64,000 nucleotides of DNA, from NCBI GenBank assembly GCA_045578345.1, contig JAZNKB010000006.1:102911-166910 (forward strand), given 5' to 3'. This DNA is from Candidatus Onthoplasma sp. (GTDB lineage: Bacteria; Bacillota; Clostridia; Christensenellales; UBA1242). Positions 47,037 to 55,059 of this stretch are shown piece after piece; the first letter of the stretch is position 1, and every line of letters starts with the position of its first letter. A program made the position numbers and the translations under genes. The notes under the pieces are model-generated. The model had not been told where the DNA came from. It saw only the letters and a program-made list of their open reading frames with translations, and did no database searches.

Positions 47037-47040
47037 TTAA

Positions 47041-47064
47041 AGGTGTCTTTTGACATCTTTTTTC
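47041..47064 (+). terminator. rho-independent terminator
   Basis: AGGTGTC/GACATCT stem plus T6. Confidence 0.65.
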
Positions 47065-47151
47065 TTGTGTTGACGACTAAATTGATAGGGTGGATTAGAA
47101 AAGATAAAGCAAATTTATAAGAAAATGCTTATAAGTTTATTAATATTTATA

Positions 47152-47335
47152 TGTGGACAAAAATGGAGCGGTGAAAAAGTTTATATTCATATCTTTGCGC
47201 AAAACTCTTCTTTTGCGCAAAGAATAATCGATTTTGAGAAAAAATCCTGTGGATATCGCTTCATTTGTCCACATTCTTGATTTTATTTGCTATATATTTT
47301 TATAATTCGACATCAAACCTACAATATTGTCCACA
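47152..47335. promoter_or_regulatory. cluster of four DnaA-box-like 9-mers
   Basis: TGTGGACAA 47152-47160, TGTGGATAT 47248-47256, TTGTCCACA 47265-47273, TTGTCCACA 47327-47335. Each is one mismatch from TTATCCACA. Confidence 0.55.
47192..47223. repeat. perfect 13-6-13 inverted repeat (candidate recombinase core site or operator)
   Basis: TCTTTGCGCAAAA CTCTTC TTTTGCGCAAAGA. Confidence 0.9.
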
Positions 47336-47362
47336 ACTATAATTTTACCTATTTTTCTTATT

Positions 47363-47889
47363 CTAAATCTGCGCTCACACGCATTTTGATTATTTTAAAT
47401 GAGTATTCTATCATTTAGTTTTATAATTTTTTTGTTTAACAAATATTGTAAAAAATCAAATTTAGTTTTGTATAATTTAAATGAACAATTTATCGTTTAA
47501 ATTTGTGTGAATGCGTCTCACAGCAGATTTCAAATTATTCATTAGATTTTTTTGATTTTAAATTCAAAGATTTGTAACACATCAAAATTTTATAAAATTT
47601 CAAATGAGGAATTGTTCATCTAAAAATTTTCCAATGCGTCTCAGCGCATTTTAGAATTTGATAATTTTTTTAAATTTTTCAAATGACATATCATTCATTT
47701 ATTTTAATAAGAATTCGTCTGAGAACGTTTCTAAAAAATAAGATATATCATATGTTTTTAGTTTTTTTGAAAGTTTAATTCTAAATGATGAATCCGTCAT
47801 CTTTTTTATTCAAAATCGCTCTGAGAGCATTTTTGCAAATGAACAATTCCTCATCTATTTTTAAGTCATTTTGTCTCAGCGCATTTTAA
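47363..47889. repeat. six copies of a 53-bp bipartite module (one inverted)
   Basis: Copies at 47363-47416 (inverted), 47479-47531, 47602-47654, 47681-47733, 47783-47835 and 47837-47889. Pattern: AAATGA-N8-TCATYT, 10-11 nt, AATGCGTCTCAGCGCATTTT-like hairpin. Confidence 0.85.
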
Positions 47890-48044
47890 GTTAATTGAAA
47901 AATTATGCTTAATTTTACATATTTATAATTTCCTTATCAAATTATTATCCTTTTGTTGTGATATAAGTTATTCAAATTAAAATTATGAAATTATATATGG
48001 ATTTGTAATATATAGTCGTATATCTGCTCATTTAAAAGAATTTA

Positions 48045-48067
48045 CATCTTTGCGTAAAAAACCAAAT
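48045..48067. repeat. left copy of a 22/23-bp inverted repeat
   Basis: CATCTTTGCGTAAAAAACCAAAT; its reverse complement, one A shorter, is at 51828-51849. Confidence 0.9.
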
Positions 48068-48121
48068 TCATATTATCATTCTAAACAAAGCCACAGAATC
48101 TCTCTTTAGTTTTAAGTTATA

Positions 48122-48154
48122 CAAAAAAATCCAACATTGTTGTGTTGGACTTTT
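48122..48154. terminator. bidirectional terminator-like hairpin
   Basis: A7, TCCAACA/TGTTGGA stem, CT5. Confidence 0.6.
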
Positions 48155-48182
48155 TATTTTCTAATTAGAATGCAATAGAAAT

Positions 48183-48211
48183 AAAACTCCAACTATTTTA
48201 GTTGGAGTTTT
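48183..48211. terminator. terminator hairpin after the 251-aa minus-strand gene
   Basis: 12-bp stem AAAACTCCAACT/AGTTGGAGTTTT. Confidence 0.75.
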
Positions 48212-48214
48212 ATT

Positions 48215-48970
48215 CTAATTATCAAATGTTTCACCCTTAAATTCTTCATTGAATTCTTGGCAATTTTTAAGTGCTTGCTTCATATAATCAATACTTTGCT
48301 CTGCCCTTTTGCCTGATTCCGTTATGGTTTTATTATCAGCATTTTCTTGCAACATTTCTTGTTCTTGCTTTAATTGGTTTAGCCTACGCATAAGTAAATT
48401 TTCTTCACTTTTTAACAATTCAGCAACATATTCTTGAGTATATTTAGATGTTTGTTCTTCACCGGTATTTTCTTTTTCTCTTTCTTTAATTAATTCTAAT
48501 TCAGAAAGTAAATTTGTTTTTTTAGTTTCATTTTCACTGATTTCTTCTTTAATTTCAACTTCCCTTTCTACTAAATCATCAAGATAAGATTTGTTTGATT
48601 GTTCGTATAATTTAACAAGTTTATCAAGATCTTTTAATCTTCTAGATTTCTTTAATTCCTTCCACTCTTTTCTTGTTAGTCCTAAACTTTTTAAAGATGG
48701 TTCCATTGTATATATCATCCCACCTAATAACAATCCTGTGGAAGCTCCCAAAATTGTTGTTACTGGTAAATATTGAATAAAGCTTGTTGCTAATGGATAT
48801 GCTAAAGCCAAAGGAACTATAAGACCCATAAATGGTGCCATAATTGATATAAACCAAAAGTTAAATTTCGCCCTTTTTTTCCTTAGTAAAGAATAAATAT
48901 AATCTACCTCATCTTTATTTAATTCATGTGCTTGCTTATTATATAAAACATTTCTAGTTTCTTGTGTCAT
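48215..48970 (-). CDS. membrane protein with long C-terminal coiled coil (251 aa)
   Basis: GGAGAAG RBS before ATG 48970 (MTQETRNV). Two TM segments, then a Glu/Lys-rich heptad-like region. Confidence 0.55.
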   Translation of the reverse strand: MTQETRNVLYNKQAHELNKDEVDYIYSLLRKKRAKFNFWFISIMAPFMGLIVPLALAYPLATSFIQYLPVTTILGASTGLLLGGMIYTMEPSLKSLGLTRKEWKELKKSRRLKDLDKLVKLYEQSNKSYLDDLVEREVEIKEEISENETKKTNLLSELELIKEREKENTGEEQTSKYTQEYVAELLKSEENLLMRRLNQLKQEQEMLQENADNKTITESGKRAEQSIDYMKQALKNCQEFNEEFKGETFDN

Positions 48971-48991
48971 ATTTTCTTCTCCGTTAAGCGA

Positions 48992-49020
48992 ATAATAGCA
49001 TACAATTGCTATTTTGTCAA
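48992..49020 (-). promoter_or_regulatory. sigma-A promoter for the 251-aa gene
   Basis: On the minus strand: TTGACA, 17 nt, TGc-TATTAT. Confidence 0.55.
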
Positions 49021-49051
49021 TAAAAAAGGTAATCAAAAAATTTAATTACCT
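49021..49051 (-). terminator. serS terminator
   Basis: AGGTAAT/ATTACCT stem with a U-run on the minus strand. Confidence 0.65.
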
Positions 49052-50357: not shown

Positions 50358-50678
50358 TTATATTTCTTTTTCTTCTAAGCCTTCAAGATATATTCTATCT
50401 TTAAAAGCACCACGTTTTTTAACTTTTTCAAGTCTTATACTTTCAAATTCTTCGTACGACACGCCTTTACAATCTAATATTGCCCTCAAAACCTCTTCTA
50501 AATCAGCAAGTTCTTCAATTTCGCCACTTTCTAAATATTCTGCCAATTCTTCTTGAATTTTCATATTTAATTCAACAAGATATTCATCATCATTTAATTT
50601 TCTTGTTATACAGGATCGCCCTTCATTTTGTTCAATAATTTGCGGAATTTTATCTCTAACTAACTTATGATAACTCAT
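50358..50678 (-). CDS. MazG-like / PRA-PH-like nucleoside triphosphate pyrophosphohydrolase (106 aa)
   Basis: KLVRDKIPQII...EELAEYLE...EELADLEEVL...KKRGAF pattern. Confidence 0.7.
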   Translation of the reverse strand: MSYHKLVRDKIPQIIEQNEGRSCITRKLNDDEYLVELNMKIQEELAEYLESGEIEELADLEEVLRAILDCKGVSYEEFESIRLEKVKKRGAFKDRIYLEGLEEKEI

Positions 50679-51054
50679 TTTTTCCTCCTATAGTTTTGTA
50701 CTCATCTTTATCAGATTCCCATTGTCTCCATTGAGATTTCTCAAACTTTTTAATTGCATCTTTAAGATTTAATGCTTCTATAACCTTTGTCCATAAATGT
50801 GTGCTTATTTGAATTTCAGAAAAGGACTTATTTACCAAAATCACTTCGTTAACTTTTTCTGACAAATAACTTCCTTTATAAATACAATAAGCAATCAAAT
50901 TGGTATCTAAATATTTTTCACTTGAATAATACCCGCAAAAATATCCTTCTGCTGTGGTTTCACACTGTGAAAATAAGCCAACATAATATTCACCTTCTTT
51001 TAAAGGTTTTAGTCCATTAAGAGTTTGTTTTATTTGATTAACATAGAATTTCAT
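50665..51054 (-). CDS. hypothetical protein (129 aa)
   Basis: AAGGAGA RBS. First ORF after the T-box terminator. No family recognised. Confidence 0.5.
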   Translation of the reverse strand: MKFYVNQIKQTLNGLKPLKEGEYYVGLFSQCETTAEGYFCGYYSSEKYLDTNLIAYCIYKGSYLSEKVNEVILVNKSFSEIQISTHLWTKVIEALNLKDAIKKFEKSQWRQWESDKDEYKTIGGKNELS

Positions 51055-51061
51055 ATTTCTC

Positions 51062-51322
51062 CTTAAATAAAAAAAACACCTCTAAAAATTAATTTAGAGG
51101 TGATATTTAACCACTGTGCCACTCTATTTGAACATCTATATATTGTGTAATATATAAACATCCCACTCATTATGTTGCAAATTGTGCCATGCAATCGGCT
51201 CTGCATTACCAGATATCTCAAGAGGTAGACGCACAATGATTCAACAATTTGCTTTCACCAACCGCAAACTCTCTGATGCTTTCAACAATGTGCTAGTCTC
51301 TTTACAAACGATATATTTAACT
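51062..51322 (-). promoter_or_regulatory. T-box riboswitch leader, serine-specific
   Basis: On the minus strand: AGAGAG, distal-loop GGTTGGTGAAAG, GAA-UCA (UCU also nearby), T-box-like AAATAGAGTGGCACAGTGG. Terminator is CACCTCTAAA/TTTAGAGGTG plus U8 (51068-51102). Confidence 0.8.
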
Positions 51323-51328
51323 ATTTAA

Positions 51329-51357
51329 ATTTTAACAAATATTTTTCTTAATGTCAA
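51329..51357 (-). promoter_or_regulatory. promoter of the T-box operon
   Basis: On the minus strand: TTGACA, 17 nt, TAAAAT. Confidence 0.55.
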
Positions 51358-51380
51358 TAATTTTTTTTAATTTTGTTAAT

Positions 51381-51740
51381 TTAATATTCTGAATTTTGAA
51401 TTTGCAAAACTTCTGCGTTAGTTAAATCTTCAAAAGTTTCATAAGAAACCAATTCTTCTTTTGTTGACACGTCGTGCAAATTATAAGTTATATTTGATTC
51501 TTTATCACTTTTGATTCTAAGGAACAATTCATTCCCACTCAAATATTCCTCAATTTCTTTATTAAGGTCTGAAACATCAATTCCTAAGTATTTCATGAAA
51601 GTTTCAAAACTTGAATTTGCATACATATTTTCGCTAACAGCATTTCCATTTTCATCAATTTTGCCAATTTCAACGTAAACTTTTCCATTTTCCTTAATAT
51701 ATACATCTATATAATCATTCATAAATAATCTTATTGTCAT
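51381..51740 (-). CDS. hypothetical acidic protein (119 aa)
   Basis: AAAGGAGAAG RBS; own promoter; no family recognised. Confidence 0.5.
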   Translation of the reverse strand: MTIRLFMNDYIDVYIKENGKVYVEIGKIDENGNAVSENMYANSSFETFMKYLGIDVSDLNKEIEEYLSGNELFLRIKSDKESNITYNLHDVSTKEELVSYETFEDLTNAEVLQIQNSEY

Positions 51741-51827: not shown

Positions 51828-51849
51828 ATTTGGTTTTTACGCAAAGATG
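51828..51849. repeat. right copy of the 22/23-bp inverted repeat
   Basis: ATTTGGTTTTTACGCAAAGATG; overlaps the -35 and spacer of the recombinase promoter. Confidence 0.9.
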
Positions 51850-51886: not shown

Positions 51887-52927
51887 ATGAGCAACAATTA
51901 TTATTTAGATAGAAATCGTAAGAACATGAGAAAACTTAATGAGATGCTTGCTGAATTGCCACCATTTTGCAGTGTGTTTTTCATTGGAATTCAAGACACA
52001 ACAACTCCGTTAACCCGATTAAATTATGCTGTTGATTTGAAGTTGTTCTTCAATTATTTGGTGACATATGAAACTCAATTTTTCAATCGTCAAATTCAGT
52101 CAATAACTATTGCTGATATTGACGAAATTGACTCCCAACTTATTGAAAGATTTATGGCTTATATTGCATATTACGATAAAGATGATGGCACTGTTTTAAC
52201 TAATGGCGAACGTGGAAAATTGCGCAAATTATCAAGTTTGAGAGCATTTTTTAAATATTTTTTCTGTAAGGATATGCTTAGAGCTAATGTTGCAAGCAAA
52301 GTTCGGTCTCCTAAACTTCACGAAAAACCAATTATTCGATTGGAAGAAAGTGAAACTGCAGAACTGATGTATTCATGCGACACACTATCTGGTTTTAGTG
52401 AACATCAAAAGAAGTATAATGAAAACTTTAAAACACGTGACAATGCTATTATTTCCCTATTTTTAACAACAGGGATACGTGTTAGTGAATGCGTTGGGCT
52501 CAATGTTGATGATATCAATTTCAACCTTAATTCGTTTAGAGTTACAAGAAAAGGAGGAAATCAAGTTATTCTATACTTTGGTGAAGAAACTGCTGAAATT
52601 TTAAAAAATTATCTTCTCTATCGCGACACACTTCAAATTCCAAAAGAAGAACAAGCTTTATTTATTTCAAGCCAAAAGAAACGCATGTCCGTTCGTTCAA
52701 TGGAATATTTGGTGAAAAAATATGCACGTGTGGCAACTCCACTTAAAAAAATTACACCACACAAACTTCGCTCCACTTATGGCACAAACCTTTATCGCGA
52801 AACCAAGGACATTTATATTGTTGCAGAGGTTTTAGGACATAAGGATGTTAACACAACAAAAAAACACTATGCAGCAATAACTGATGATGTAAGACGTTCT
52901 GTTGCAGGTGTTGTTAAATTGAAATAG
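51887..52927 (+). CDS. tyrosine recombinase, Xer family, long form (346 aa, XerS-like layout)
   Basis: Catalytic signature TGIRVSE (Arg), TRKGGN (Lys), HKLRST (HxxR), LGHKDVNTTKKHY (His..Tyr). Confidence 0.85.
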   Translation: MSNNYYLDRNRKNMRKLNEMLAELPPFCSVFFIGIQDTTTPLTRLNYAVDLKLFFNYLVTYETQFFNRQIQSITIADIDEIDSQLIERFMAYIAYYDKDDGTVLTNGERGKLRKLSSLRAFFKYFFCKDMLRANVASKVRSPKLHEKPIIRLEESETAELMYSCDTLSGFSEHQKKYNENFKTRDNAIISLFLTTGIRVSECVGLNVDDINFNLNSFRVTRKGGNQVILYFGEETAEILKNYLLYRDTLQIPKEEQALFISSQKKRMSVRSMEYLVKKYARVATPLKKITPHKLRSTYGTNLYRETKDIYIVAEVLGHKDVNTTKKHYAAITDDVRRSVAGVVKLK

Positions 52928-53071: not shown

Positions 53072-53085
53072 CGAACAAATGTTTG
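53072..53085 (+). promoter_or_regulatory. LexA (Cheo) box
   Basis: CGAACAAATGTTTG versus consensus CGAACATATGTTCG; overlaps the -35 of the lexA promoter. Confidence 0.7.
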
Positions 53086-53780: not shown

Positions 53781-53803
53781 GTGTAAAATACAATTAATTA
53801 CAC
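53781..53803. promoter_or_regulatory. inverted repeat upstream of the PadR operon (candidate operator)
   Basis: GTGTAA-N11-TTACAC, 18 nt before the -35. Confidence 0.35.
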
Positions 53804-53849: not shown

Positions 53850-53901
53850 TTATTTATAAAATAAATAAAAAATGAGCGTTTTTTTGCTCAAAAGGGGTGT
53901 T

Positions 53902-55059
53902 ATGAAAACTGCTGATTTAATTCCTTTTATTCTTCTGGAACTAAATGAATGTGATAAATACGGTTTTGAATTAACAAAAGCGATAGAAACAAAATCTAAT
54001 GGTAAAATTATCATTAAACAACCAACTCTCTACACTCTACTTAAAAAACTTGAAAAATCAAAGTTTATTGCTTCTTATTGGGAAGATAGCGAAATTGGCG
54101 GAAAACGTCACTACTATAAGTTAACTGAAAATGGAAGGTTGCAAGTTTCAACTCTGCCTCCTTATGATTTTTTGTTGAAAAATGCTCTTAATGAAGATGT
54201 AGCATCTGATGAAACAATGGTAGAAATAAAACAATCTGAAACTTCTGAAAAAAGAGTTTCAATTATGGATCAACTACTCCCAACAAATGTGGAACCATCA
54301 GAAAGTATTTTACCAACAGAAGAAGTCTTTTCTGATAATAACATTGATAATTCAACTGAATTGGATATTAATGTTGCAAACACCGAGATTCTTAAAAATT
54401 CAAACACCGCTATTGATGAAGAGTTTGCAACAAGTGACGTTGTTTCGAAATTTACCGAAAAAGTTGAACCATCTCAAATAATTCACGAAACAAATCAAAC
54501 AAATGAAGCACATCAACCTTATAATTCCATTCTTGATGTTGATTTCACTATTCCAAAAAATGAAGCCGAAATTAAATTTGTTGACTATGTTGATTTTAAA
54601 AACTCTGATAACTACAAAAAATCTAAGAATATATCATATGCTATGCTTATTCAATCATTATCAACCAGTGCGAGTTTAATCCTTGTTGTTCTTTTAAGCG
54701 CTATTATTTCTTCATTTACAGGAAGAACCTCTTTATATTATGCGTTTTTTATCCCTTCAATTTTAATTACACTGTTCTACCCTATTGTGGTTGCAGTTAA
54801 TTTACATAAGATGAGACTAAAATATCAGGCAGTTCAATTTAATACAAAAATTAAACAACGTTTATACATAGGAATTTGTTTATTCTTAATGGTCTTAGTA
54901 GTCTGTATAATTGTTAATATTAAAATGAAGAACAACACTTTAATTCTTATATTAGAATTTCAAAATTTCGAGAGTTTTTATGCTCCACTGATGATGACTT
55001 CTGTATACTTTATCGATTTATTATTTAAACATTTGTTTATGTCAAAATTTAACAAATAG
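53902..55059 (+). CDS. PadR-family wHTH regulator fused to a low-complexity linker and C-terminal multi-TM domain
   Basis: GFELTKAIE...KQPTLYTLLKKLEKSKFIASYWED..GGKRHYYKLTENG PadR core. An acidic/Asn-rich linker follows, then 4-5 hydrophobic segments. Confidence 0.75.
   Translation: MKTADLIPFILLELNECDKYGFELTKAIETKSNGKIIIKQPTLYTLLKKLEKSKFIASYWEDSEIGGKRHYYKLTENGRLQVSTLPPYDFLLKNALNEDVASDETMVEIKQSETSEKRVSIMDQLLPTNVEPSESILPTEEVFSDNNIDNSTELDINVANTEILKNSNTAIDEEFATSDVVSKFTEKVEPSQIIHETNQTNEAHQPYNSILDVDFTIPKNEAEIKFVDYVDFKNSDNYKKSKNISYAMLIQSLSTSASLILVVLLSAIISSFTGRTSLYYAFFIPSILITLFYPIVVAVNLHKMRLKYQAVQFNTKIKQRLYIGICLFLMVLVVCIIVNIKMKNNTLILILEFQNFESFYAPLMMTSVYFIDLLFKHLFMSKFNK

Follow-up and report, generated by a model that had tools for sequence, protein, structure and literature searches.

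How most bacteria, Clostridia included, place the termination of replication near dif is an open question. In a locus of Candidatus Onthoplasma sp., a dif-like core, a DnaA-box cluster and an array of polar repeats are packed into one kilobase and conserved clade-wide. The locus was studied in a window of 64,000 nt (assembly GCA_045578345.1, contig JAZNKB010000006.1, positions 102,911-166,910, forward strand; positions below are those of the window), in which a first-pass annotation had noted six copies of a bipartite module and had proposed that they were small RNAs, leaderless micro-ORFs (small open reading frames), or binding sites for a dimeric protein, perhaps polar sites near a terminus. 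The module array is real, clade-wide, confined to one locus and under purifying selection. We consider it likely that the modules are cis-acting polar sites in double-stranded DNA (dsDNA) for a predicted protein, and not genes. Within this class of protein sites, the anatomy of the modules suggests a Ter-like polar barrier to replication forks as the single most likely role, one that we put forward tentatively.

Six modules in a gene-free region

The modules lie in the conserved stretch of non-coding DNA that separates ynbB from the next gene (47037-48214). As described initially, this region was without genes and AT-rich; its G+C content was 24%, compared to 30.8% for the whole window. All six of the 53-bp copies that had been claimed were recovered, aligned without gaps and far above chance. 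Module U1 (47363-47416, - strand) is inverted, with element 2 on the left and element 1 on the right (47397-47416); it starts 27 bp past the last DnaA box and is separated from U2 by an AT-rich gap of 62 bp. The remaining five are direct copies on the + strand: U2 (47479-47531; element 1 AAATGAACAATTTATCGTTT, element 2 AATGCGTCTCACAGCA); U3 (47602-47654; element 1 at 47602-47621, element 2 at 47633-47652), which is the best conserved; U4 (47681-47733); U5 (47783-47835), which abuts U6 with a 54-bp period; and U6 (47837-47889), the element 2 of which has no inverted repeat. The reported start-to-start spacings of 123, 79, 102 and 54 bp were correct.

The pattern AAATGA-N8-TCRTYT gave eight strand matches in the 64 kb, all on the six modules, compared to an expectation of 0.33 (0/100 shuffles). 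The element 2 pattern, AATNCGTCTSAGNGCA, when allowed up to two mismatches, matched the six modules only (0.41 expected). The slightly stricter form AAATGA-N8-TCATYT, which had been claimed for every copy, did not hold for U2, which carries TCGTTT. In contrast to the AATGCG...CGCATT repeat that had been ascribed to it, U6 reads ATTTTGTCTCAGCGCATTTT and forms no second hairpin. Nor was there support for the suggestion that element 2 keeps a short inverted repeat built from different bases, since the registers shift and no conserved helix was seen among the 36 copies compared. The centre of U3 (GGAATTGT) is indeed the reverse complement of the centre of U6 (ACAATTCC); this 'swapped centre' is simply the exchange of two half-site variants.

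The array is conserved throughout the clade

The ynbB-like flanking protein had hundreds of relatives (77-94% identity) from uncultured gut Clostridia, and the GTDB representatives among these carry the names Candidatus Onthoplasma or 'uncultured Clostridia'. Twenty genomes made up the clade set (the window, L001, L002, L005, L006, L008-L017 and L025-L029). Their gene order, mutS-mutL-miaA-ynbB, non-coding region, serS, Xer-like recombinase gene, lexA and padR, was identical in 20/20. A profile built from the six copies in the window was used to search the 64-kb window, 10-kb flanks and the relatives. Modules were detected in all 20 clade genomes and were confined to the ynbB-serS intergenic region; no copy was found in the rest of the 64-kb window or in the 10-kb flanks, and the same search found none in six distant genomes that have ynbB in a different context. 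The order of features within the region was also fixed in every genome: terminator, DnaA boxes, dif-like core, DnaA boxes, modules, AT-rich spacer, solitary recombinase arm and terminators.

In the five closest genomes, orthologous copies of U3 were 85% identical, compared to 49% at four-fold degenerate sites of ynbB, and element 2 of U3 was nearly invariant among orthologues. This difference indicates purifying selection and rules out neutral local duplication; nor are the modules a product of local drift, since all 20 genomes examined have them.

The number of copies per genome ranged from 1 to approximately 10. Some modules abut with a period of 52-55 bp (about five helical turns) and others are 80-140 bp apart; apart from the abutting class, the helical phasing of the inter-module distances was inconsistent. 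At least one direct copy, with element 1 facing the dif-like core, was present in every genome, and 13 of the 20 had direct copies only. Inverted copies were found in the other seven: six have one beside the last DnaA box (U1 and its inverted orthologues at the same place in L001, L002, L005, L006 and L029), and L011 has about five. They always lie to the left of the direct copies, so that element 1 faces element 1. An invertible switch was considered and rejected, as orientation was the same across all 20 assemblies. Two genomes stood out in other respects. The array of L011, approximately 640-1110 after ynbB, comprises only one direct module beside about five inverted ones that have diverged, so that the 1:5 ratio of the window is turned round, and that of L017 comprises approximately 7-10 direct copies in a background of higher G+C content.

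The annotation knew of no described element with this pattern, and this held for the collections that were searched. Rfam, at gathering and permissive thresholds, returned two tRNAs elsewhere and sub-threshold noise on terminators, with no family on the modules. When the region was compared by BLAST with plasmids and phages, and viral contigs were scanned with a degenerate form of the module, no similarity emerged. An exact-pattern scan of metagenome contigs gave a single match, which was unrelated, of high G+C content, attributable to chance and of no use for context. The module family and the composite region are undescribed in the Rfam, plasmid, phage and viral collections searched.

Module anatomy favours a site in double-stranded DNA

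The consensus of 38 copies was AaATGAnnAATTnnTCATyT - 11 nt - cAATtCGTCTsAGaGCAkwTT. Element 1 is a dyad of 16-20 bp, (A)ATGA-nn-AATT-nn-TCAT(yT), the per-position information of which mirrors across the centre (r = 0.94), the central AATT included. The information in element 2 is asymmetric (r = -0.05), and the centres of the two elements are approximately 31 bp, or three helical turns, apart. This combination of a mirrored element 1 with an asymmetric element 2 points to a homodimeric protein on dsDNA, with polarity conferred by element 2. Moreover, the central AATT is symmetric even though it would be the loop of any hairpin, which favours a dsDNA site over an RNA.

The tandem two-hairpin small RNAs that had been suggested were not borne out. 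RNAalifold, run on the module alignment, returned 0 consensus pairs and no covariation was seen. In the proposed two-hairpin structure 65.9% of cells were paired, compared to 64.7% after shuffling, and 83 of 500 shuffles reached the observed value. Three of the six pairs of helix 2 were broken in more than half of the copies. A scan of the sense strand inside the array found no terminator, and the copies that abut at 52-55 bp leave no space for each unit to have a promoter of its own. The -10-like hexamers that had been noted upstream of the ATG were the same as the AT-rich background, with 14 promoter-like sites found and 11.7 expected.

A broader function at the level of RNA would cast the direct modules as protein-binding motifs in one long non-coding transcript, running from approximately 47306 to the terminator at 48130-48149, or as separate small RNAs. 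Such a transcript could start from a promoter-like TTGATT-18-TATAAT (47277-47306, within the DnaA-box cluster), of which extended -10 variants occur in relatives; a + strand terminator follows a stretch without an ORF, and all direct modules share one orientation with the terminal arm. We nevertheless regard this explanation as quite unlikely. Besides the absence of consensus structure and covariation, the helix-1 stem never covaries, and its loop is palindromic with mirrored information, as expected of dsDNA and not of a hairpin loop. Helix 2 is missing in most copies, inverted copies would be antisense, no Rfam family matched the modules and no antisense target was found in the window. The terminator-like hairpin itself (48130-48149, + strand) follows approximately 1 kb without a + strand ORF and could end a transcript that crosses the array. 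Beside it, a perfect 16-bp inverted repeat (48180-48214) terminates a - strand gene.

The modules could alternatively encode leaderless peptides of 16 codons (MxNCSFxxFxMRLSAF), and in the orthologues of U3 from the window, L001, L002 and L006 the 16-codon frame does stay open and ends at the same stop. Against this, approximately 15 of 38 copies lack any ATG, GTG or TTG start, or are stopped before element 2, and yet retain element 2. Third codon positions were not relaxed; they were conserved as much as the first and second positions across the modules, with no codon periodicity, and Shine-Dalgarno sequences were absent. Leaderless starts, which the annotation had attributed to this genome, are not general in it, the XerS-like gene, for example, having GGGGG 5 nt before its ATG. 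Peptide coding is scarcely credible on these grounds.

The locus lies at the replication terminus

To the left of the locus 35 of 38 genes were on the + strand, reading toward the array, and the nearest genes on the right point back. The GC skew at third codon positions (GC3 skew) was split into a replication term and a coding term by comparing + and - strand genes on each side. In the window the replication term was +0.08 on the left and -0.07 to -0.08 on the right; it was higher on the left than on the right in 8/8 genomes, and the cumulative skew was maximal at the locus. Judged by gene convergence and the sign change of the GC3 skew, the locus is the replication terminus and not an origin. 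The neighbourhood of mutSL, miaA, ynbB and lexA is one that we take to lie near the terminus in Bacillus subtilis as well. Purine-rich heptamers such as GAAGAAG also point to the locus, a trend that is confounded by the coding strand. A Chi-like or KOPS-like reading of the element 2 k-mers was rejected, the strand skews being those of purine-rich codons and confounded by gene orientation.

A cluster of DnaA boxes surrounds the dif-like core (47152-47335), comprising TGTGGACAA at 47152-60, TGTGGATAT at 47248-56 and TTGTCCACA at 47265-73 and 47327-35, with a Spo0A-like TTCGACA at 47306-12. Three of the four exact occurrences of TTGTCCACA in the 64 kb fell in the cluster. Perfect TTATCCACA boxes were present in relatives, in which four to five boxes were conserved together with the Spo0A-like and promoter-like elements.

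A DnaA-box cluster is one of the features by which an oriC is recognised, and the modules might be iterons of a replication origin. This could be an oriC that has been displaced, a secondary origin, or what is left of a replicon that integrated at dif. The consensus DnaA boxes, the Spo0A-like box, the AT-rich 62-bp gap between opposed modules and the repeated dyads would all fit such an origin, and the region is bracketed by Xer arms, as in elements integrated at dif. This explanation is nonetheless very unlikely. The genes converge, and the replication term of the GC3 skew has the sign of a terminus in the window and was higher on the left in 8/8 genomes. A skew minimum, divergent genes and a dnaA/dnaN neighbourhood were not found at the locus, where the neighbours are mutSL, miaA, ynbB, serS, the xerS-like gene and lexA; no rep gene lies nearby. 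There was no similarity to plasmids, phages or viral contigs, and synteny is stable clade-wide.

Clusters of DnaA boxes at sites other than oriC are known to influence initiation (PMC13220808). The modules could be cofactor sites of a DnaA-control locus, comparable to datA and DARS2 of Escherichia coli or the DnaA-box clusters of B. subtilis, in which the boxes and a module-bound protein would titrate or recharge DnaA, timed to the end of replication by the location at the terminus. The conservation of four to five consensus boxes directly beside the array in all relatives speaks for this role. It leaves the polarity of the modules and their inverted-then-direct arrangement unexplained, and the DnaA-control loci known so far rely on IHF or Fis sites and not on bipartite repeats of such length; we consider it unlikely.

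A dif-like core and recombinase arms accompany the array

The difSL-like core (47191-47224) has a 14-6-14 organisation, ATCTTTGCGCAAAA / CTCTTC / TTTTGCGCAAAGAA, with inverted 14-bp arms and an asymmetric 6-bp centre. In distant relatives both arms are altered alike (TTTGCGTAAA / TTTACGCAAA) and the centre varies. The left arm matches the Lactococcus lactis difSL sequence ATCTTTCCGAAAA at 12 of 14 aligned positions; the arm set against it reads ATCTTTGCGYAAAA. The minimal difSL of L. lactis is ATCTTTCCGAAAAACTGTAATTTTCTTGACA, and XerS prefers its left arm (PMC2965235). In the window the core lies about 140-150 bp from U1, with DnaA boxes between them; across the clade the distance from core to first module was 179-271 bp, and neither the side nor the orientation of the array changed.

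Solitary arms were found in addition to the core. One, ATCTTTGCGTAAAA (48046-48059, + strand), closes the region on the right and was present in every relative at the same relative position. Another (51835-51848, - strand) lies within the promoter of the XerS-like gene, in the spacer of TTGGTT-17-TATAAT, a position that suggests possible autoregulation. In total 75 arms were collected from the 20 genomes (consensus atATCTTTGCGtAAAAaac), and certain species have additional arms right after ynbB. The XerS-like gene (51887-52927, + strand) encodes a tyrosine recombinase of 346 amino acids with 83-97% identity across the clade, a conservation that exceeds that of ynbB; lexA always adjoins it. The best NCBIfam family of the protein was XerS, matched over the full length with 175 bits, which is below the 267-bit cut-off; XerC or XerD might still be encoded elsewhere in the genome. 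The possibility that the modules are degenerate Xer arms was discarded, as their arm-matrix scores equalled those of shuffled sequence.

These features raise the possibility of an architectural or accessory role for the modules, either in XerS/dif recombination or in the positioning or segregation of the terminus. A dimeric protein would coat the array and could impose a synapse topology (cer/psi-like), tether the terminus in the manner of a centromere such as F sopC or of MatP-matS, or unload SMC complexes. In every genome the array occupies one side of the dif-like core, in constant orientation, and further recombinase arms close the region; abutting copies recur every 52-55 bp. The tandem units with a 16-bp dyad recall sopC of the F plasmid, which consists of tandem units of tens of bp, each with a 16-bp dyad for a dimeric protein. 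The variation in core-module distance, copy number (1-10) and spacing makes for a poor fit to a fixed synaptic geometry. Furthermore, element 1 is not an ARG box (0/6 copies within two mismatches) and does not score with the Xer-arm matrix, no parA or parB gene was found in the flanks, and there was no plasmid similarity. An accessory role is, in our judgement, possible but doubtful.

A Ter-like barrier as the proposed role

The dyad of element 1, the asymmetry of element 2 and the location at a switch of skew and gene orientation next to a dif-like site favour the third of the initial proposals, binding sites for a dimeric protein that may be polar sites near a terminus, over small RNAs and micro-ORFs, neither of which was upheld. 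In the mechanism that we propose, the element 1 dyad would be read by a dimeric DNA-binding protein, and element 2, three helical turns off, would set the direction. A fork arriving at a protein-bound module from the element 1 side would be arrested, and one arriving from the element 2 side would pass. The direct copies, which every genome has, would catch the left-replichore fork once it had replicated dif, the inverted copies of 7/20 genomes would hold the opposite fork, and fork fusion would be confined to less than 1 kb from dif. Together with the difSL-like core and the DnaA-box cluster, the array would form part of a conserved non-coding 'terminus control region'. The differences in copy number and spacing are compatible with sites that act independently. 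Protein binding, the identity of the protein and fork arrest are what we infer here, and the role itself is read from anatomy alone.

Several observations weigh against a Ter-like barrier. No RTP or Tus domain was found in the 25 neighbouring proteins scanned, and no module lies in the promoter of any flank gene, unlike the situation for rtp and tus (PMC10331603). With direct copies only in 13 of the 20 genomes, a two-sided trap is not general. The dif-like core is positioned just outside the U1/U2 interval and not between opposed copies. The rule that inverted copies are leftmost reflects only two to three independent events (the U1 lineage and L011), since the single inverted copy is orthologous among close relatives. 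The DnaA boxes at the terminus are left unexplained by the model, and the view of the genome on which it is judged spans 64 kb only.

If fork arrest or terminus organisation proved to be the role, the locus would provide a compact model system that could be tested in a heterologous host, the natural hosts being uncultured, and a sequence tag with which to locate termini in metagenome-assembled genomes. If the role were instead DnaA control or that of an Xer accessory, these would still be the first such modules described for the lineage.

Neighbouring genes and known operators

Three known operator types were considered for element 1 and excluded. It is not a LexA box: GAAC-N4-GTTC occurs in none of the modules, and element 1 varies at just those positions that are critical for LexA. 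A LexA box of the canonical Firmicute type, CGAACAAATGTTTG (53072-53085), overlaps the -35 (TTGACA) of lexA. It is also not the operator of the PadR-like regulator, the own upstream palindrome of which, GTGTAAAATACAATTAATTACAC, differs. This palindrome, at 53781-53803, lies upstream of the gene for a protein of 395 amino acids (53872-55059) that starts with a PadR domain and has a C-terminal half that is long and hydrophobic; an ABC transporter pair comes after this gene. The palindrome is probably the regulator's own operator. For the ARG box, TGAATWWWWATTCA, no copy was within two mismatches and the window-wide count equalled chance.

Two groups of neighbouring genes had no family match. The gene at 48215-49036 (- strand) belongs to a fast-evolving family of 177-273 amino acids without a Pfam match, also present in L005 and L026-L029. 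Its members have an N-terminal LYNK, two hydrophobic helices, the motif LGLT(R/K)KEWKELKKS and an acidic coiled-coil tail. In some genomes the family occupies the interval from the array to serS, with two paralogues in L029; other genomes lack it. Between serS and the recombinase gene, three small genes (50358-51740, - strand) encode proteins of 106, 129 and 119 amino acids. This trio, which is absent from L001 and L002, looks like a strain-specific insertion at the terminus.

Comparison with known systems

Multicopy small RNAs such as LhrC1-5, Qrr and the csRNAs resemble the modules in being clustered intergenic repeats of similar size. The modules differ from them in having no conserved terminator or structure and no covariation, and their abutting copies have no promoter of their own. 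With sopC, repeat centromeres and plasmid iterons, the array shares tandem, dyad-bearing units of variable copy number. In contrast to these, its spacing is irregular, an asymmetric element is added, partition and rep genes are absent, there is no plasmid similarity and the setting is a chromosomal terminus.

The accessory sequences of cer and psi, bound by ArgR, PepA and ArcA, are likewise protein-binding DNA on one side of an Xer core. The present array exceeds them in length, its distance and copy number vary, it accompanies a chromosomal dif-like site, and element 1 failed the ARG-box test. XerS/difSL of lactococci and streptococci is similar in that XerS is the best family match of the recombinase, and also in its arm sequence, the presence of an arm directly upstream of the gene and its location at the terminus. 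The core described here is symmetric (14-6-14) and separated from the gene by 2.4-4.7 kb; difSL, by contrast, is asymmetric and adjoins xerS. There are extra solitary arms, the XerS score is below cut-off, and the modules occur in no described Xer system.

Only a few lineages have fork traps, and these are of convergent origin (PMC13220808; PMC10331603). The known cases come from two narrow groups of bacteria. In B. subtilis, the opposed terI and terII sites are approximately 0.1 kb apart near dif, and each has A and B sub-sites such that a fork arriving at B first is blocked (PMC13220808; PMC10331603). RTP-Ter and the array share a non-coding location at the terminus near dif, bipartite polar sites, redundant copies and restriction to a narrow clade, and the separation of terI from terII can be set beside the 62-bp gap between U1 and U2. 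They differ in several respects. The modules are 53 bp long, compared to 32 bp for ter, and only element 1 is dyadic; all modules lie within less than 1 kb, whereas ter sites are spread over approximately 10% of the chromosome. Most genomes of the clade have one orientation only, there is no RTP-like gene near, and no site is in a promoter. We note no sequence resemblance of the modules to either known ter type, a statement made without direct comparison. With slightly more reserve than for the Ter-like role itself, we suggest that the array may be the cis part of a fork trap served by a predicted terminator protein, which, if fork arrest is true, would be the third such system to have evolved independently, after Tus-Ter and RTP-Ter.

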